The notes beneath the pieces were generated by a model. The model saw only the letters and a program-made list of their open reading frames with translations, searched no databases and was not told where the DNA came from. This document shows positions 3,481 to 23,128 of a stretch of DNA of 32,000 nt, piece after piece. Within the stretch, counting starts at the first letter, position 1, and each line of letters starts with the position of its first letter. Source of the DNA: Dehalococcoidia bacterium (GTDB lineage Bacteria; Chloroflexota; Dehalococcoidia; GIF9; UBA5629); contig JBEKIW010000003.1 in assembly GCA_050011565.1 (NCBI GenBank), positions 133,765 through 165,764 on the forward strand, written 5' to 3'. A program made the translations under genes and the position numbers.

Positions 3481-3702
3481 ATGGAAGAGTCTGTAGGTAA
3501 GGTTGTCACGTTAATCGGATCCAGTCGCGAGTCCTTCGAAAAGGCTATTGCAAATGCTGTAGCGGCGGCAGCGAAGACATTGCATGAGATACACGTTGCC
3601 GATGTACGGAAGCTGTATGTGCACGTTGAGAATGGCAAGATTACCAGCTATCGGGCAAGGGTCAGGGTGGCCTTTCAATACGATCCAAAATATAAGAAGT
3701 AG
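3481..3702 (+). CDS. dodecin family flavin-binding protein
   Basis: 73 aa. The pattern VGKVVTLIGSSRESFEKAIANAVAAAAKTLHEI...V.VENGKITSYRARVRVAF matches the dodecin pattern as I recall it (V.ELTGSS..S.EDAI..A...A.KTL). Strong SD. Confidence 0.8.
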   Translation: MEESVGKVVTLIGSSRESFEKAIANAVAAAAKTLHEIHVADVRKLYVHVENGKITSYRARVRVAFQYDPKYKK

Positions 3703-3828
3703 TTATAATCCGGTAAGCTGCTAGACCCTCTATACGACTAATAGTTTATGATGATTTCAGGTCAGGTGGCCTGCGAAGTAATTGCAGCCTGTTGCTACCT
3801 GAGAAGTTCTGTTTTTGTGACCGGCCAG

Positions 3829-4845
3829 CTAAATATACCTCCCCACCGCCTCGGCAATGAGCTTAAGCTCGGTCATCAACCGGGCAAAGTCCGACGGTGT
3901 CAGCGATTGGAGGCCATCCACCAGGGCTTCCTTGGGGTTGGGATGGGCTTCGATGAGGAGACCGTCGGCACCGGCGGCTATAGCCGCTTTAGCCAGCGCG
4001 GGCACCAGAGAATAATGTCCGGCGGCGTGGCTGGGGTCGACAACTAAAGGCAAGTGGCTGGATTTCTTTATCACGGGAATCGAGCCGATATCCAGAGAAA
4101 AACGAGTGCTGTCCTCGAAGGTCCTGATGCCCCTCTCACATAAAATAACCCGGTCATTGCCACCAGCCAATAAATAGTCGGCGGCGGTAAGCCATTCGGT
4201 AACCGTAGCCGATAAGCCCCGCTTAAGTAGAACAGGGCACCGGCTCTTACCGATTTCGGTCAGTAGCGCATAGTTCTGCATATTCCTGGCTCCGACCTGG
4301 AGTATGTCAGCATACTGCGATACCCTGTCGACATCATGAGGTGCCACCACCTCAGTGATTACAGGCATGCCGAATTGCTGCTTGGTCTGCTGTAACATCT
4401 TTAGACCGGCCTCCTCCAGACCTTGAAAGGCAAAAGGTGAGGTGCGCGGTTTATAGGCGCCGCCTCGTAGAATGCAGGCTCCAGCCTCCTTAACCATCAT
4501 GGCTGCCGCCATGAGCTGTTTCTCGCCTTCGACGGCACAGGGGCCGGCCATGACCACAATGCGCTTGCCGCCGATTTGAACCCCGTTGACGGAAACTACG
4601 GTGTTCTCCGGTTTGAACTCGCGGGCACTGAGCTTGTACGGCTTCATAATCCTGGTCACGCTCTCCACACCGGGGAGAACGGCAAAGATGTCAATAGGCA
4701 GCTGGCCGGTATTGGGTCCCAGCAAAGCGACGACCACCTTGTTGGTGCCCAGATTCAACTGGACGCCCAGCCCTAGCTCCTTGGCCCGCTGCACGACGTC
4801 GTCTACTTCTGCTTGAGGAGCGCCGGTTCTCATTTCAACTATCAT
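3829..4845 (-). CDS. aroF: 3-deoxy-7-phosphoheptulonate (DAHP) synthase, type I-beta with N-terminal ferredoxin-like regulatory domain (Thermotoga maritima type)
   Basis: 338 aa. It appears collinear with the T. maritima enzyme as I remember it: MIVxxxxG...VESVxRxxKPYKLxSREF, AGPCxVEG, LRGGAYKPRTSPxxFQGL, LLKRG, CERGIRTF, VDPSH. An AAGGAG SD is present. Confidence 0.92.
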   Translation of the reverse strand: MIVEMRTGAPQAEVDDVVQRAKELGLGVQLNLGTNKVVVALLGPNTGQLPIDIFAVLPGVESVTRIMKPYKLSAREFKPENTVVSVNGVQIGGKRIVVMAGPCAVEGEKQLMAAAMMVKEAGACILRGGAYKPRTSPFAFQGLEEAGLKMLQQTKQQFGMPVITEVVAPHDVDRVSQYADILQVGARNMQNYALLTEIGKSRCPVLLKRGLSATVTEWLTAADYLLAGGNDRVILCERGIRTFEDSTRFSLDIGSIPVIKKSSHLPLVVDPSHAAGHYSLVPALAKAAIAAGADGLLIEAHPNPKEALVDGLQSLTPSDFARLMTELKLIAEAVGRYI

Positions 4846-4882
4846 GATTGTAACTCCTTAATTTTTTTCACCCTCACCCTGA

Positions 4883-4905
4883 CCCTCTCCCCTCAAGGGA
4901 GAGGG
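4883..4905. repeat. REP-like hairpin CCCTCTCCC-ctcaa-GGGAGAGGG
   Basis: Perfect 9-bp stem seen directly. It shares the GGGAGAG core with hairpins at 5179-5199, 5303-5323, 9533-9548 and 23158-23190. It lies between the attenuator terminator and the aroF SD and has no U-tract. Confidence 0.6.
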
Positions 4906-4912
4906 AACATTT

Positions 4913-4944
4913 AAAAACAGAAAGCCTCCCGCGGGGCGGGAGGC
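4913..4944 (-). terminator. intrinsic terminator (candidate attenuator terminator upstream of aroF)
   Basis: On the minus-strand RNA, GCCUCCCG-loop-CGGGAGGC (4944..4924) is followed by UUUCUGUUUUU (4923..4913). The same hairpin is followed by TCTTTTT on the plus strand, so it could act in both directions. Confidence 0.6.
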
Positions 4945-4976
4945 TCTTTTTGCCTTAGATATTTTGCTGCTGTTTT

Positions 4977-5075
4977 TTAGGTCGATGCCATCCCAGACCC
5001 GCGCCGAGGCGTGCTAAACCAAAAGCCAAAGAAAAACCAGCTATAGCTGCGAGTCAGGTTATGCATTTCGACCAT
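4977..5075 (-). CDS. candidate aromatic-amino-acid leader peptide (32 aa from ATG 5075; 29 aa from the in-frame ATG at 5066)
   Basis: My translation reads MVEMHNLTRSYSWFFFGFWFSTPRRGSGMAST*. It is too short for the ORF track. It sits directly downstream of a strong promoter and upstream of a terminator and aroF. Eight of ten consecutive codons (5045..5016) are Tyr, Trp or Phe. Confidence 0.55.
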   Translation of the reverse strand: MVEMHNLTRSYSWFFFGFWFSTPRRGSGMAST

Positions 5076-5085
5076 GGTGTTTAGA

Positions 5086-5115
5086 ATGATAGCAATAAAT
5101 GTTGAACGTTGTCAA
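5086..5115 (-). promoter_or_regulatory. candidate sigma70-type promoter for the aroF leader transcript
   Basis: On the minus strand: TTGACA (5115..5110), an 18-nt spacer, then TATCAT (5091..5086). The ATG at 5075 is 10 nt after the -10, giving a near-leaderless transcript. Confidence 0.55.
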
Positions 5116-5162
5116 CCAGATCAGGGTCCGTCTAATATGGATAAAAGTTTAAATCCTAAATT

Positions 5163-5330
5163 AGAAAATCCCTCTCAATCTCCCTTTACGAAAGGGAGAG
5201 GTTAGTTGCTAGCTTTGCGAAAGGGAGAAGCTGGTTTTTGCCCGTTGCTACTCTCCCCCTTAGAAAAAGGGGGATTAAGGGGGATTTAAAATCACTCTCA
5301 GTCTCTCCTTACGAAAGGGAGAGGTCCCAT
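5163..5330. repeat. cluster of REP-like hairpin units (composite element A...B, plus extra units)
   Basis: Hairpins: TCTCCCTTT-acg-AAAGGGAGA (5179-5199), a degenerate unit around 5211-5232, CCCCCTT-agaaa-AAGGGGG (5255-5273), and CTCTCCTT-acga-AAGGGAGAG (5303-5323). The element recurs inverted at 9489-9568. Confidence 0.7.
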
Positions 5331-5355
5331 CAATCCAGGAGGAAAAGGAGCAATA

Positions 5356-5811
5356 CTAGACCAGGGGAATTGTGGTGCCGGTGGCTTTGGCGATGAGCTT
5401 GCCGTCCTGGTTGGTCACCATCATCTCGGAGATGCAGACCCGCCTGCCGGCCCTGACCACACGGCATTCGGCGATAAGCTCGTCTTTCACATCGGCGCTG
5501 GCGACAAAATGGATGTTGAACTGCGAGGCTACGTTAGGAGTGATTACGGAGTTGGTGCCGTAGGCGAAAGCCTGGTCAGCCACAGCCATGATAATGCCGC
5601 CGAAGACCAGGTTATTGAAGTTAAGGTATTCGGGCTTAAGCTTCGCCGATACTCTGGCATAGCCCTCGGATAACTCCAGCAACTTTATGTCTAAAAATTT
5701 GGCGATAGGCTCACTACCGGCTTTTGCCTTCAAGGCTGCTACATTGTCAGAGGCATTGGCGCCCACAGCGGCATTTGCTCCGGGTTTTTGTTTATCAGTT
5801 TTCTTATCCAT
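5356..5811 (-). CDS. PaaI-family hot-dog acyl-CoA thioesterase
   Basis: 151 aa. The core ..ELSEGYARVSAKLKPEYLNFNNLVFGGIIMAVADQAFAY.. matches the PaaI/PaaD-type thioesterase pattern. It is the last gene of the ior operon. Confidence 0.8.
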   Translation of the reverse strand: MDKKTDKQKPGANAAVGANASDNVAALKAKAGSEPIAKFLDIKLLELSEGYARVSAKLKPEYLNFNNLVFGGIIMAVADQAFAYGTNSVITPNVASQFNIHFVASADVKDELIAECRVVRAGRRVCISEMMVTNQDGKLIAKATGTTIPLV

Positions 5812-5817
5812 AATATA

Positions 5818-7005
5818 TTAACGCAAGCCAAATTTTTTGGCTGCTTTTTTGAAGCCGTCCAGAGAACCTTTTAAGGTCTTGTCATCAACGCAGTACGAAA
5901 TGCGAAAATAGCCCGGTGTGCCGAAGCCCCGCCCCGGCACCACCAGCACATTCCACTGCCGCAGCTCGTTGACAAAGGCAACGTCATCCTCTACCGGCGA
6001 CTTAGGAAACATGTAGAAAGCACCATGCGGCTTTACCACCGAGTAGCCCAGGTCAACAAGATTGCCATAAAGAAAATCCCTCTTCTTTTGATAATCGGCT
6101 ATAGAGACGGTGACATGCTGCAGGTTCTTCACCAGGTGCTGCATCAACGCCGGTGCATTGACAAATCCCAAAATCCGGGTGCAGAAAATAAAGCCGTTGA
6201 CCAGCTCATCATGCTGGCTGCAATCCGGATGTATGGCGATATAACCAATGCGCTCACCAGGTAGCGCCAGGTCTTTGGAATGGGAATGAACAACTATGGT
6301 GTGGCGGTGGTGATGGAAAACAGGCGGGTATGGCAACCCGTCAAATATGATTTTGCGATATGCCTCGTCGCTTATAAGATAAATCTGCTTGTCGTTTTGA
6401 GCCTCTTTTCGACGCAGCAGCTCGCCTAATTGCATCACCAGGTCCCGGCTGTAGACCGCGCCGGTCGGGTTATTAGGAGAATTGATAATGACGGCTTTTG
6501 TCTTGGTCGAAATGGCGGCTTCAAGGGAATCCAGCTTCGGCACAAATTGCTCATTCGTGGGCAAGACCTTGATAACTCCACCGTGATTATCTATGTAGTT
6601 GCCGAATTCCATGAAGTAAGGAGCGAACACAATCACCTCGTCTCCGGGATTCAGTATTGTCTTCAATACCACATTCAAGCCGCCGGCAGCGCCGCAGGTC
6701 ATGACAATATCGTTGCCGCAGAATTTAATGCCGGTCTCGTGCGAGAGCTGTACGGCAACGGCGGCTCGTGTGTCTGCATAACCGGCATTCTCCATATATC
6801 TGTGCATACCCGGCACAGGTTTTTTCATCAGCTTCTTCAATTCCTGGTTAAACTCAGGCGGCGGCTCCATGACCGGATTCCCCAGGGACAGGTCGAAAAC
6901 ATCCTTCTCACCGTATCGCTTTTTGAGATTAGCCCCTTCCTCGAACATCCTCCGTATCCACGACCCCTCCATCATGCGTTTGCTGACATTATCTGACACC
7001 GGCAC
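5818..7005 (-). CDS. pyridoxal-phosphate-dependent class I aminotransferase (aspartate/aromatic type)
   Basis: 395 aa. It contains NSPNNPTG and SHSKDLALPGERIGY (the PLP lysine). The start is GTG, preceded by a GGGAGGAG SD, and it overlaps the iorB 3' end by 17 nt. Confidence 0.9.
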   Translation of the reverse strand: MPVSDNVSKRMMEGSWIRRMFEEGANLKKRYGEKDVFDLSLGNPVMEPPPEFNQELKKLMKKPVPGMHRYMENAGYADTRAAVAVQLSHETGIKFCGNDIVMTCGAAGGLNVVLKTILNPGDEVIVFAPYFMEFGNYIDNHGGVIKVLPTNEQFVPKLDSLEAAISTKTKAVIINSPNNPTGAVYSRDLVMQLGELLRRKEAQNDKQIYLISDEAYRKIIFDGLPYPPVFHHHRHTIVVHSHSKDLALPGERIGYIAIHPDCSQHDELVNGFIFCTRILGFVNAPALMQHLVKNLQHVTVSIADYQKKRDFLYGNLVDLGYSVVKPHGAFYMFPKSPVEDDVAFVNELRQWNVLVVPGRGFGTPGYFRISYCVDDKTLKGSLDGFKKAAKKFGLR

Positions 7006-7588
7006 GAGACATCTCCTCCCTGCCTTTATCGAAGGCGACCATGTTCATTTTTAGAATGTTGGGTGACAGCCGTTGAGAAATGCAGTCTTTCCAAACATCA
7101 ATGCCAATGGGCAGAAACGAAGATAAACAGCCCAGCATAATCATATTCAGCGTCCTGATATCGCCCAGTTCCTTAGCCTGGCGGGTGCCATCAACGAAGT
7201 AAAAACGCTCAGCCCACTGCCGCAATATGCCCTCTATCTCCTTATCGCCCGGGTACCGCTGGGTCCCTAGGCTCACCGACAATGGCGGCGTCGACTGATT
7301 ATTGACAATGGAGGCACCGCCCTCGTGTAAATAGTAGCTCCACCTGGCTGCCTCCAATTTCTCGAAAGCGACCAGTATATCGACCTCGCCTTCTTTGATT
7401 AAAGGCGACCACACCTTATCAGATATACGAACATGACTGACGACGCTGCCGCCTCGCTGTGCCATACCCAACGTATCCGTTTTCTTGACATCATAACCGG
7501 CAGCCAGTGCCACCTCACCCAGTATATCGCTGGCCAGAACTATACCCTGCCCGCCTACGCCCACCATAAGCAAGTCCTGCTTTTTCAC
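6989..7588 (-). CDS. iorB: indolepyruvate:ferredoxin oxidoreductase, beta subunit
   Basis: The GVGGQG motif lies near the N-terminus. I place the start at GTG 7588, which overlaps the iorA TGA in a GTGA arrangement suggestive of translational coupling. An alternative ATG is at 7567. The track ORF extends to 7672 inside iorA, and that extension is unlikely to be coding. Confidence 0.85.
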   Translation of the reverse strand: MKKQDLLMVGVGGQGIVLASDILGEVALAAGYDVKKTDTLGMAQRGGSVVSHVRISDKVWSPLIKEGEVDILVAFEKLEAARWSYYLHEGGASIVNNQSTPPLSVSLGTQRYPGDKEIEGILRQWAERFYFVDGTRQAKELGDIRTLNMIMLGCLSSFLPIGIDVWKDCISQRLSPNILKMNMVAFDKGREEMSRAGVR

Positions 7589-9402
7589 TTCGACTCTCCG
7601 ACAGCAGTCAATGGGCCTATTGCCTTTTTGGGGCAGAGCTGCTCGCAGATGGTACAGGCAGCACCAGCACACAGCGCGGCATCGATGTAAATCTGCTCAT
7701 CCAGATTTTGTATTGCCGGACAGCCGATTCTCAGGCACGTCTCGCAGTCGTCGCATTTTTCTATATCAACAGCTCTTTGGCCGGAGCGCTTTCGCAGCCG
7801 TACCGAGCAAGCTCCGCGGACTATTATGACAGACAGCTCAGGGTTATCCAGCGAACTTCTCACCGCCGCTCTAAGAGCTTTCATATCAAAGGCGTCAACT
7901 ACCTTGACGTCGTTAACTCCGACGCCTTTAACCAGCCGCTCCAGCTCAACCATCCGGGTCTTTTTGCCCTTGGCTGAAACTCCCGTTCCGGGATGGTCCT
8001 GGTGTCCGGTCATAGCCGTAGTGCCGTTATCCAGTATGATAATCGTCACTCCCGATTTGTTGTAGACGGCATCGACCACGCCGGTAATACCGGAATGGAG
8101 GAACGTGGAGTCGCCGATAACAGCCACCACCTTGCCCTCAACGCCGGCCTTCTCCATTCCCAGAGCCTGACCGATGCCCGCACCCATACAGGCGGTAGTA
8201 TCCATAGCGCGCAGCGGCGGATAGGTAGCCAGCGTATAGCAGCCGATATCGCCGGTGATAATCAACTTCCCTTGCTCTTCCGACTTGCCTCTGGCATCCA
8301 GCAGCTTGGACCTCTGGCCTATGGTGTTAAGCACAAAGAATATGCCGGCATGCGGACAACCGCCGCACAGGACGGGGGGCCGTCCCGGTAATCCCTGCGG
8401 CAGCGGCACCTGCCTGCGTGAAGGCTTGGCTAATAGTCCAGCACGGTAACCGGCTGCCTCGACAATGCCCGGATTCAACTCACCGATTCTGGGGATGAAC
8501 TCCTTTCCCGTCACCTTTATACCCATGGCCAGTATATTTTCCTCCAGGAATGGGTCGAGCTCTTCAATAACGATTAGCCTGTCCACCTGTGCGGCGAACT
8601 CTTGGAGTAACTTCCGCGGCAGCGGATAGGTCATGCCCAGCTTAAGAAAAGAAGCCCTGGGAAATGCCTCTCTGGCGTACTGGTAGGCAACGCCGCTGCT
8701 GACCACACCGAGGTGGCATTCTCCCTTGATTATCTGGTTGCCGGGAAAGGTATCGGCATAGGCAGTAAGCTTGACCAGGCGCTGCTCGACGACCGGCCTC
8801 CGGAGACGGACATGAACTGGCAGCATGACATATTTCTCTACATCGTGCTTGAAGCTGGCTGGATTTGCCGGCGCCACCCGGCTCCGGTTCGTCTCCACCA
8901 CGGACTTGGAATGAGAAATGCGGGTGCTGGAGCGCACCAGCACCGGCGTATCGAACCGCTCACTGAGTTCAAAGGCAACAGCCATCAATTCATAGGCTTC
9001 CTGGCTGTCGCTGGGCTCAAGCATGGGCACCTTAGCCAGTTTGGCATAGTGGCGCGTGTCCTGCTCGTTCTGGGTGCTGAAGACACCAGGGTCATCGGCT
9101 ACAATCACCACCAGTCCACCATTAATGCCGGTTATAGATGCCGCCATAAAAGGATCACTGGCTACATTCAGTCCCACCTGCTTCATGGATACCAGAGCTC
9201 GAACTCCAGCATAAGCGGCTCCCATGCCCAGCTCCATAGCCACCTTCTCATTCGTCGACCACTCCGCGTAGACATCGTCAAAGCGGGCTATCGATTCAAG
9301 TATTTCGGTGCTGGGCGTACCGGGATAGGCTGCTGCCACCATAACGCCGGCATGATAGGCTCCGAGGGCAAAGGCTTCGTTTCCGGAGAGCAGTTTTTTC
9401 AT
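7585..9402 (-). CDS. iorA: indolepyruvate:ferredoxin oxidoreductase, alpha subunit (TPP-binding, C-terminal 2x[4Fe-4S])
   Basis: 605 aa. It has TPP-type motifs (GDIGCY, GDSTFLHSG) and two Cys clusters at the C-terminus (CDDCETCLRIGCP, CAGAACTICEQLCP). Confidence 0.92.
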   Translation of the reverse strand: MKKLLSGNEAFALGAYHAGVMVAAAYPGTPSTEILESIARFDDVYAEWSTNEKVAMELGMGAAYAGVRALVSMKQVGLNVASDPFMAASITGINGGLVVIVADDPGVFSTQNEQDTRHYAKLAKVPMLEPSDSQEAYELMAVAFELSERFDTPVLVRSSTRISHSKSVVETNRSRVAPANPASFKHDVEKYVMLPVHVRLRRPVVEQRLVKLTAYADTFPGNQIIKGECHLGVVSSGVAYQYAREAFPRASFLKLGMTYPLPRKLLQEFAAQVDRLIVIEELDPFLEENILAMGIKVTGKEFIPRIGELNPGIVEAAGYRAGLLAKPSRRQVPLPQGLPGRPPVLCGGCPHAGIFFVLNTIGQRSKLLDARGKSEEQGKLIITGDIGCYTLATYPPLRAMDTTACMGAGIGQALGMEKAGVEGKVVAVIGDSTFLHSGITGVVDAVYNKSGVTIIILDNGTTAMTGHQDHPGTGVSAKGKKTRMVELERLVKGVGVNDVKVVDAFDMKALRAAVRSSLDNPELSVIIVRGACSVRLRKRSGQRAVDIEKCDDCETCLRIGCPAIQNLDEQIYIDAALCAGAACTICEQLCPKKAIGPLTAVGESK

Positions 9403-9444
9403 CGTTTTACCGGCTCAATGTGGAAAGCAATAAACCAGGTTAGC

Positions 9445-9474
9445 ATTATGCCACGTGAGGAACCTAAATGGCAA
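9445..9474 (-). promoter_or_regulatory. candidate promoter of the iorA-iorB-aminotransferase-thioesterase operon
   Basis: On the minus strand: TTGCCA (9474..9469), an 18-nt spacer, then TGgCATAAT (-10 at 9450..9445). It lies about 45 nt upstream of the iorA ATG. Confidence 0.45.
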
Positions 9475-9488
9475 CTGGGTGGTAGGAG

Positions 9489-9568
9489 GAAAATCCCCCT
9501 TAGTCCCCCTTTTCCAAAGGGGGAGAGTTTCTTCCTTTCCTAAAGGGAGATTGAGAGGGATTTTATTT
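9489..9568. repeat. inverted copy of the composite REP-like element seen at 5163-5292
   Basis: The reverse complement of 9489-9568 reads AAAATCCCTCTCAATCTCCCTTTAGGAAAGG...CTCTCCCCCTTTGGAAAAGGGGGACTAAGGGGGATTTT. This matches 5165-5202 plus 5250-5288, with about 50 bp missing in between. It contains the hairpin CCCCCTTT-tcc-AAAGGGGG (9505-9523) and abuts the asd stop codon. Confidence 0.7.
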
Positions 9569-22629: not shown

Positions 22630-22664
22630 ATCTTAATCAGATTTTAATATTAGGTTGCTATGCT
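22630..22664 (+). promoter_or_regulatory. tandem 11-bp direct repeat plus -10 element (site b) upstream of the second LTXXQ gene
   Basis: ATCTTAATCAG ATTTTAATATT aggttgc TATGCT. It aligns position by position with site a. Confidence 0.5.
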
Positions 22665-22699
22665 TAAATCATCTACATAAGAAAGGAGGTGACACAGAA

Positions 22700-23128
22700 A
22701 TGCGGCTGAACAAAAAATTGATTATTATTGCGGTATCAGTGGCTGTGCTGCTAATCGGGAGCATCGCCGGGGTTGTACTGGCTGCAGGCAACGACAACAG
22801 CAATCAGTCTAATGCTCAAGGCGAGGACCTGTTGGCAAAGGTCTGCACCATATACCAGCAGAACACGGGCAACGCTATTGATGAAACAGCGCTCAAAAAC
22901 GCTTTCACTCAGGCTGAAAATGAGGCGCAGTTGGCGCGGGAGCAAACCCGCCTTAATGACCAGGTAACGCAGGGCAAGATAACCCAGGATCAGGCTGACC
23001 AGTATCTAAAGTGGTGGCAGTCGAGGCCCAATTTACCGGGTGGATTTGGCTTTGGTGGACCTGGTGGTTTCCCCGGTCGGGGTGCACCGTGCGTCCCACC
23101 TGCAACAGCTCCTAGCACGACACAATAG
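22700..23128 (+). CDS. secreted LTXXQ-motif protein (single-unit paralog of 18278..19045) with Gly/Pro-rich tail
   Basis: I place the start at ATG 22700 (MRLNKKLIIIAVSVAVLL...), 9 nt after an AAAGGAGGTG SD. The track ORF begins 15 codons earlier without an SD. It shares LLAKV..I....D...L..AF.QA and GKITQDQADQYLKWWQSRPNLPG with the 255-aa paralog. Confidence 0.75.
   Translation: MRLNKKLIIIAVSVAVLLIGSIAGVVLAAGNDNSNQSNAQGEDLLAKVCTIYQQNTGNAIDETALKNAFTQAENEAQLAREQTRLNDQVTQGKITQDQADQYLKWWQSRPNLPGGFGFGGPGGFPGRGAPCVPPATAPSTTQ

Follow-up and report, generated by a model that had tools for sequence, protein, structure and literature searches.

A candidate leader-peptide attenuator with mixed aromatic codons upstream of a type I-beta DAHP synthase gene in a Dehalococcoidia bacterium, and similar leaders in several phyla

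The pheL-pheA and trpL-trpE leaders of Enterobacteria (Rfam RF01859 and RF00513) combine a promoter-proximal short open reading frame (ORF) bearing a run of codons for the cognate amino acid with alternative RNA pairings (1:2, 2:3 and 3:4), an intrinsic terminator before a biosynthetic gene, and a stop codon placed such that a terminating ribosome masks region 2. Here we describe an element apparently built on the same plan, its 2:3 pairing and the masking of region 2 being candidates, on the minus strand of a 32,000-nucleotide stretch of Dehalococcoidia DNA (hereafter the window; GenBank assembly GCA_050011565.1, contig JBEKIW010000003.1, positions 133,765 to 165,764), where it precedes aroF (4845..3829, minus strand, as are all coordinates below unless a strand is given). 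This gene encodes a type I-beta DAHP synthase with a ferredoxin-like N-terminal domain (Pfam DAHP_synth_1 and DAHP_snth_FXD), and its match to NCBIfam PRK08673 (467 bits) marks it as the Bacillus/Thermotoga type. Sequence and comparison make it probable that the element works as a transcription attenuator of the ribosome-mediated, leader-peptide type, by which aroF expression follows the charging of the tRNAs for Phe, Tyr and Trp. It is an additional case of the classical kind and not a new mechanism; the understanding of attenuation itself is unchanged, and the interest lies in the breadth of occurrence, a probable leaderless start and a second target gene. Unlike pheL and trpL, which each use one amino acid and precede terminal-branch enzymes, the window element mixes Phe, Trp and Tyr codons in one run and precedes the DAHP synthase of the common pathway. 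Further, its region 1 lies upstream of the regulatory codons, the 1:2 helix encloses these codons, and its ORF appears, from the distance to the promoter, to have a leaderless or near-leaderless start.

Leaders of this kind have been linked with aroF before, and the original prediction was right in recalling one from Corynebacterium glutamicum: its aroR leader (Phe-Tyr-Phe) is described as attenuating an operon that includes a DAHP synthase gene (Neshat et al. 2014, as cited in PMC11802643 and PMC4046766). Unlike the window leader, aroR belongs to a different phylum, has three aromatic codons and contains no Trp. A computationally defined motif of Acholeplasma and some environmental sequences, uORFC-13-1, occurs exclusively upstream of aroF and consists of a promoter, a start codon, a Phe-coding U-run and then an intrinsic terminator (Brewer et al. 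2021, PMC8632094); unlike the window leader it has a ribosome-binding site and at least one Phe codon rather than a dense F/W/Y run. The mycobacterial leaderless poly-Cys short ORFs, as outlined in a preprint (bioRxiv 10.1101/834739), resemble what is predicted for the window leader, a start at the 5' end of the transcript or close by and the sensing of the supply of the cognate amino acid, and differ in the amino acid sensed and the genes controlled. An attenuator was also hypothesised long ago for the aroF of Escherichia coli. We regard the likeness of the window leader to aroR and uORFC-13-1 as one of functional analogy. The aroR leader presumably precedes a type I-alpha AroF and not a type I-beta enzyme with an FXD domain. 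In the open-access literature we found no description of an aromatic leader from Chloroflexi, Planctomycetes or Dehalococcoides.

Existing models likewise pass over the element. No Rfam 15 family reaches its gathering threshold anywhere in the window, and at E<=10 over 4800..5400 there is only sub-threshold noise from Phe_leader, Trp_leader and PyrG_leader, with Phe_leader (RF01859) at 21.0 bits against a gathering score of 55 on 4916..5050(-), against which stands a comparable 23.6-bit match on the opposite strand, and Trp_leader (RF00513) at 14.1 bits against 41. T-box leaders are the usual control of aromatic genes in Firmicutes; the T-box model gave no match at the gathering threshold in the window, nor at E<=10 in 4800..5400. 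A scan of four of the leader peptides against NCBIfam returned 0 families at E<=10.

The anatomy of the locus follows the classical order of a promoter, a short translatable ORF with a cluster of codons for the end products, and a terminator. The promoter consists of a -35 hexamer TTGACA (5115..5110), located by consensus scan, and a TG-extended -10 box TGcTATCAT (5094..5086, with TG at 5094..5093 and TATCAT at 5091..5086); with an 18-nt spacer and 11 of 12 consensus positions it is the best promoter-like site in 3500..6500. The leader ORF MVEMHNLTRSYSWFFFGFWFSTPRRGSGMAST (5075..4977) comprises 32 codons plus a TAA stop (4979..4977), with the first ATG at 5075 and a second in-frame ATG at 5066. 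Its regulatory run Y S W F F F G F W F (5045..5016) has eight aromatic residues in ten, and the aromatic density of the ORF is the highest among the 659 small ORFs (8-70 amino acids) on both strands of the window. The last nine codons contain the G-rich region 2, CGCGGGTCTGGGATGGC (5003..4987). From the leader stop codon to the aroF start there are 131 nt, in which lies a strong intrinsic terminator made of region 3, AGAGCCTCCCGC (4947..4936), and region 4, GCGGGAGGCTTT (4932..4921), the latter delimited by terminator scan and alignment pair counts. Its core is GCCTCCCGC (4944..4936), a CCC loop and GCGGGAGGC (4932..4924); the scanned stem spans 4947..4921 with 12 pairs, 8 of them G-C, its energy with the A:U extension is -24.8 kcal/mol, and the U-tract TTTCTGTTTTT (4923..4913) directly follows the hairpin. 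The aroF Shine-Dalgarno (SD) sequence AAGGAG (4859..4854) precedes the ATG at 4845, and the consensus scan found no promoter-like site between 4913 and 4845. The promoter, start and stop codons, aromatic run, G-rich segment, hairpin with U-tract and aroF start thus all lie where the original prediction had placed them.

To this single locus we added related Dehalococcoidia-like contigs, retrieved by a metagenome scan (L081) and by protein identity. The orthologous unit of promoter, frame, aromatic run, region 2 and terminator recurs at nine loci, eight of them distinct in sequence (L081, L161, L163, L164, L166, L167, L168, L169 and L170), whose DAHP synthases are 81-92% identical to that of the window, L081 standing at 81%. 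The encoded leader peptides are MVEMHNWARSYNWYLFFFGFGTSRCGLGRALT (L166), MKVETHNWARSYNWYFFFFGFGTPRRGLGKALT (L161, L163 and L164), (VKVE)MRNQASSYRFFFFFFEFSTPPSGPGWALT (L081), (VKVE)MHNQVHSYCFYFWFSALPRGLGRALT (L170), (VKVE)MHNQVHSYRFYFWFSVLPCGLGRALT (L169), (VKVE)MHNQVRIYFWFFFSYGTPCGPGMALT (L168) and (VKVK)MHNQARAYYCFFWFGTLPHGHGRALT (L167). In an alignment of nine leader sequences (A2; mean column identity 76%) the TTGACA hexamer is the same in 9/9, and the -10 box (with T33 A34 .. A37 T38 invariant), the start region, region 2, the GCAT.GACCTA stop context and the terminator arms show little or no variation. The reading frame is maintained throughout: an in-frame start and stop are always kept, and each of the four indels is a multiple of three. 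The aromatic run varies freely in sequence and length yet stays aromatic, through exchanges among F, Y and W codons and through synonymous changes such as TAC/TAT between L161 and L163. Conversely, the third codon positions of region 2 are invariant in all nine sequences (both Gly codons GGG, Ala GCA, Thr ACC), which indicates selection on the RNA at this end of the ORF.

The start of the ORF shows a pattern of its own. The gap between the -10 box and the first in-frame ATG or GTG measures 10 nt in the window and 7-8 nt in most relatives (7-10 nt over nine sequences), and so short a gap makes translation from a leaderless or nearly leaderless mRNA probable. With ATG as the first start codon, either the SD-like AAGG or the second ATG has been lost to decay, as in L161, whose second ATG reads ACG; with GTG in first place, an AAGG-N6-ATG is retained. 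These alternatives suggest leaderless or near-leaderless initiation with an SD-led alternative.

Unprompted, RNAalifold run on A2 returned two helices and the terminator with its A:U extension. The first helix, P0, joins the start region of the leader ORF, GGTCGAAATGC (5072..5062), to GCATCGACC (4988..4980), which abuts the stop codon within the invariant GCAT.GACCTA. The second, P1, joins region 1, CCTGACTCGC (5058..5049), directly upstream of the aromatic codons, to 5002..4993 within region 2. Together they are 95.3% paired across the nine sequences, against 26-46% in slid controls. For P0 alone 96% of cells are paired, and one pair occurs as G-C, G-U and A-U; P1 is 94% paired and has 10 pairs, all of which vary, two of them by compensatory double changes, one from A-U to G-C and the other from C-G to U-A. 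For the terminator the figure is 95%, and one of its pairs shows a compensatory change (A-U to G-C). The folding of the 234-nt leader as a whole is also more stable than that of its dinucleotide shuffles (z = -3.49). The covariation supports a predicted resting fold in which a long helix encloses the whole leader ORF, aromatic codons included, and acts as the anti-antiterminator (1:2) of the classical scheme; this component was absent from the original prediction. Region 2 can alternatively pair, as GCGGG/GGGA/GGC with GCC/UCCC/CCCGC, with region 3 together with the loop and the start of the 3' arm (to 4931). Over the nine sequences this candidate antiterminator reaches 90% pairing, and its core 97%.

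The same conservation bears on whether the ORF might instead be a functional small protein, or might act mainly on aroF translation or mRNA stability (through ribosome loading or Rho) and not via the intrinsic terminator. The clade does preserve a C-terminal motif, G-x-G-(R/K/M)-A-(L/S)-T, and translation of a downstream gene can be enhanced by a small ORF nearby (PMC4833913). This conserved C-terminus, however, coincides exactly with the RNA pairing strands, down to its invariant synonymous positions, whereas the aromatic segment is free in sequence and length; and with 131 nt and a strong terminator between stop codon and aroF start, the ORF is too far away for translational coupling. We therefore give a peptide or translational role very little probability. 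Another alternative takes the opposite line, namely that the locus is a structured cis-regulatory RNA, riboswitch-like or protein-binding, operating the same P0/P1/terminator switch without translation, with the aromatic ORF a by-product of a U-rich loop. It would account for the strong nucleotide conservation of P0, P1 and region 2 that extends to third codon positions, for an ORF that has no clear SD in the window, and for a covariation signal that backs RNA helices and not the peptide. It would not account for a frame kept through four multiple-of-3 indels with start and stop always in place, nor for the interchange of F, Y and W codons (TGG, TAC, TAT), which shows that U-richness is not what is kept; moreover, the leaders of other phyla described below are unrelated in sequence and share only aromatic coding and a terminator, and no Rfam family matches at threshold. 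A translation-independent RNA switch is in our assessment improbable.

The ribosome-mediated attenuator requires in addition that the terminator yield to the antiterminator when a ribosome stalls, and here the computations are mixed. The original prediction had proposed folding the leader with and without the ORF masked: in equilibrium folds with a ribosome footprint masked at seven positions, the terminator was kept every time, and any switch in the window must therefore be kinetic. As this masking allowed unrealistic pairing around the ribosome, it was replaced by folding what follows a ribosome stalled at the end of the aromatic run, once with the 3' arm and once without it, and these folds do contain an antiterminator that is sensitive to a ribosome at the stop codon. 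With region 2 free and before the 3' arm is made, the antiterminator reaches -22.4 kcal/mol in the window and -17 to -25 kcal/mol in relatives; with a footprint on the stop codon it retains only -12.3 kcal/mol in the window and -5 to -12 kcal/mol in relatives. The loss on masking the stop codon, 10-15 kcal/mol, is seen in 8/8 distinct sequences, and in L166, L161 and L167 the antiterminator stays the structure of lowest energy even after the 3' arm is added. In these models, the weakening of the antiterminator by a ribosome at the stop codon matches what a trpL-type attenuator requires.

Several points weigh against the attenuator interpretation. The pairing of region 2 with the terminator arm that had been proposed from the window exists and is conserved in relatives, but in the window alone it is not above shuffled G-rich sequence (z = -0.77, p = 0.24) and it receives no support from covariation, because regions 2-4 are nearly invariant in the clade and its columns hardly vary; covariation neither supports nor contradicts it. 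Antitermination would have to be a kinetic effect. No convincing SD precedes the leader ORF in the window, and its 10-nt gap from the -10 box to the ATG exceeds the ideal for a true leaderless start. In C. glutamicum, aroR is described in the citing accounts (PMC11802643, PMC4046766) as responding to limitation of Phe and not of Tyr, and a response to all three amino acids in the window can therefore not be assumed. The element is also dispensable and patchy within its clade, close relatives (L001, L002, L082 and L171-L174) being without it, and the whole case for attenuation is computational. On the other side, comparison gives good support to the promoter, the frame with its aromatic run, the terminator and the anti-antiterminator helix, while the antiterminator and the kinetic switch are plausible. 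Orthologous leaders at nine related loci and similar leader-terminator units in several phyla lend support to the trpL/pheL-type logic first proposed for the locus.

Hence, the attenuator may be pictured as follows. From the strong sigma-70-type promoter, which sequence and comparison agree in placing there, transcription would start a few nucleotides before the leader ORF. In ribosome-free RNA, P0 (5072..5062/4988..4980) and P1 (5058..5049/5002..4993) would lock up region 2, the terminator (4947..4921) with its U-tract would form, and transcription would stop about 70 nt before aroF, leaving the gene off by default. With ample aromatic aminoacyl-tRNA, a ribosome would reach the stop codon at 4979..4977 and cover region 2, again permitting the terminator. 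Were any of the three aromatic aminoacyl-tRNAs scarce, the ribosome would be expected to stall within 5045..5016, opening P1 and exposing region 2, which could pair with the terminator 5' arm as it emerges, so that no terminator forms and RNA polymerase enters aroF. The decision would be kinetic and not thermodynamic, with 2:3 presumably forming before 3:4. As region 1 lies upstream of the aromatic codons, the stalled ribosome would sit inside or on the P1 helix, which should be unable to close around a 70S ribosome; the latter is a steric argument and not a computed one.

Directly upstream of the aroF leader, four minus-strand genes make up an apparent operon: iorA (7585..9402; TIGR03336, 690 bits) and iorB (6989..7672), together encoding indolepyruvate:ferredoxin oxidoreductase, and the genes of a pyridoxal phosphate (PLP) aminotransferase (5818..7005) and a PaaI-like hotdog thioesterase (5356..5811). 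This arrangement raises the possibility that the hairpin at 4947..4921 is merely the terminator of the iorAB-aminotransferase-thioesterase operon, perhaps even a bidirectional one, that the ORF and its promoter are coincidental, and that aroF is driven from elsewhere; the hairpin does score as a terminator on the plus strand as well, and no other obvious one is seen for the operon, whose end is at 5356. Against this, the unit accompanies aroF behind four different upstream neighbours (a 4HBT thioesterase, a DUF169 gene, a minus-strand gene and others), including L167-L170 where the upstream gene differs from that of the window, and is therefore not the 3' end of an upstream operon; it also precedes a ligase gene elsewhere (see below), the stretch from 4913 to 4845 offers aroF no promoter-like site of its own, and P0 and P1 covary. 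We deem a chance assembly on an operon terminator extremely improbable, and retain the attenuator as the preferred reading. The aminotransferase and thioesterase genes are also found upstream of aroF in L161, L163, L164, L166 and L173. No leader was detected upstream of iorA (9403..9562) by the clade hidden Markov model (HMM) of the leader or by the small-ORF scan, and on the window this HMM finds the aroF copy and no second one.

The search of related aroF loci for a conserved F/W/Y-rich ORF with a terminator, suggested with the original prediction, was thus successful at nine loci, though the distribution is patchy. The leader is absent upstream of aroF in the nearest GTDB genomes (the Dehalococcoidia metagenome-assembled genomes L001 and L002, with DAHP synthases of 77% and 75% identity), and in L082, L083-L089 and L171-L174, where aroF directly follows another gene or has its own promoter; in L082, L171/L172 and L173/L174 a plain promoter stands in place of the leader. 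L170 and L171/L172 encode an identical DAHP synthase protein (P0054), and the leader with its attenuator is present in L170 only, L171/L172 sharing with it just the last ~30 nt before the ATG. This comparison suggests a recent strain-level gain, loss or rearrangement.

Beyond the clade, we surveyed the 400 nt upstream of 139 homologues of this DAHP synthase (48-81% identical) from genomes and metagenomes, taking at least six aromatic residues in ten as the criterion. An aromatic leader ORF was present on the sense strand in 24/139 loci, as against 1/139 on the antisense strand and 0/264 in far-upstream control windows. A strict intrinsic terminator stands behind 18 of the 24, and all three aromatic residues occur in 14 of the 24 runs. 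The leaders come from Planctomycetota, Anaerolineae, Calditrichota, Acidobacteriota (L057) and one Negativicute; many of them have in common a [F/Y]-W-F-[S/T] core and a distance of 6-9 nt between -10 box and ATG. At 21 loci that have both leader and terminator, complementarity between the leader end and the terminator 5' arm was set against shuffles and exceeded them in 10 (mean z = -2.0); the complementary partner falls almost always 10-30 nt ahead of the leader stop codon. Common descent of the leaders across phyla is not shown, because the clade HMM, run with nhmmer against all 174 loci, gives no match in the planctomycete, Anaerolineae or other distant leaders. A shared TGGTTTA(G/C)C motif is explicable by W-F-S/T codons.

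Some of these distant leaders have features of their own. In a Thermoanaerobaculia metagenome-assembled genome (L057:2559-2990) a short aromatic leader, MSHSALRYAYYFGYCT, and a terminator follow trpA and precede a chorismate mutase (CM_2)-DAHP synthase gene pair, such that the attenuator logic is predicted to control a two-gene unit. The planctomycete leaders L032, L065, L075, L132, L134, L053 and L030 share a motif TTCTGGTTTAC/AGC (F-W-F-T/S), carry a hairpin ACCCG...CGGGT immediately behind their aromatic run, and end in terminators of the form CCCCGAG...CTCGGGG followed by TTTTTTGTTGG. Their region 1 is downstream of the regulatory codons, opposite to the arrangement in the window.

Within the clade, the leader HMM also recovered second copies at another gene. 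Full-length copies are found at L173:3711-3871, L081:3648-3809, L163/L164:4643-4797 and L165:2672-2826, with a further, cut copy at L161:4937-5017. Each lies directly upstream of a gene for an AMP-binding acyl-CoA ligase (PF00501; its product begins MTARDTIPQLIKNNYE). In L173 the leader is on the ligase gene and none is on aroF. Two of the ligase leader copies are Phe-only (..NFNFFFFF.. and ..GFRFFFFFFGF..). The leader copies before the ligase gene suggest a regulon; together with the iorAB-aminotransferase-thioesterase genes they allow the speculation that this is an aromatic regulon including an arylacetate/arylpyruvate route.

Taking these lines together, we somewhat favour a broader view, in which uncatalogued attenuators with mixed aromatic codons act on type I-beta (FXD) DAHP synthase genes in at least five phyla (Chloroflexota, Planctomycetota, Calditrichota, Acidobacteriota and Bacillota), often with the [F/Y]-W-F-[S/T] core and typically leaderless or near-leaderless, and in which paralogous copies on the acyl-CoA ligase gene by the iorAB-aminotransferase cluster of the Dehalococcoidia lineage form an aromatic regulon that couples the shikimate pathway with a possible arylacetate salvage route. 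The frequency of 24/139 suggests that many leader ORFs of the aromatic type are unannotated, and neither an Rfam 15 nor an NCBIfam model captures them. How genes are regulated has hardly been explored in Planctomycetota and in Chloroflexota of the Dehalococcoidia type, most of which are uncultured, and an attenuator that can be recognised from sequence offers a direct handle on the timing of aromatic amino acid synthesis in these organisms. It would add a transcriptional layer above the allosteric FXD domain of this class of DAHP synthase, and its recurrence before the ligase gene, beside genes for indolepyruvate:ferredoxin oxidoreductase, could help to assign a function to the ligase.

Other features of the window touch the locus less directly. 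The spacer between the terminator and the aroF SD contains a G+C-rich hairpin, CCCTCTCCCTTGAGGGGAGAGGG (4905..4883), which is not counted in the switch because this spacer is completely different in L081 and L161-L170; relatives have unrelated hairpins there. The window hairpin is probably an insertion resembling the repetitive extragenic palindromic (REP) type and not a part of the switch. REP-like hairpin repeats, CTCTCCCTTTCGTAAAGGGAGA and variants, occur in intergenic DNA at 5179-5200 (-), 5302-5323 (-) and 9529-9550 (+), and the 240 nt between the thioesterase operon and the leader promoter contain such repeats. Finally, the only other small ORF of the window with at least seven aromatic residues in ten is a Trp-rich one (..WIWLWWTWWF.., 23011-23115, plus strand); it lies out of frame inside ORF 22655..23128, and we judge it to be a chance by-product of that overlapping gene.

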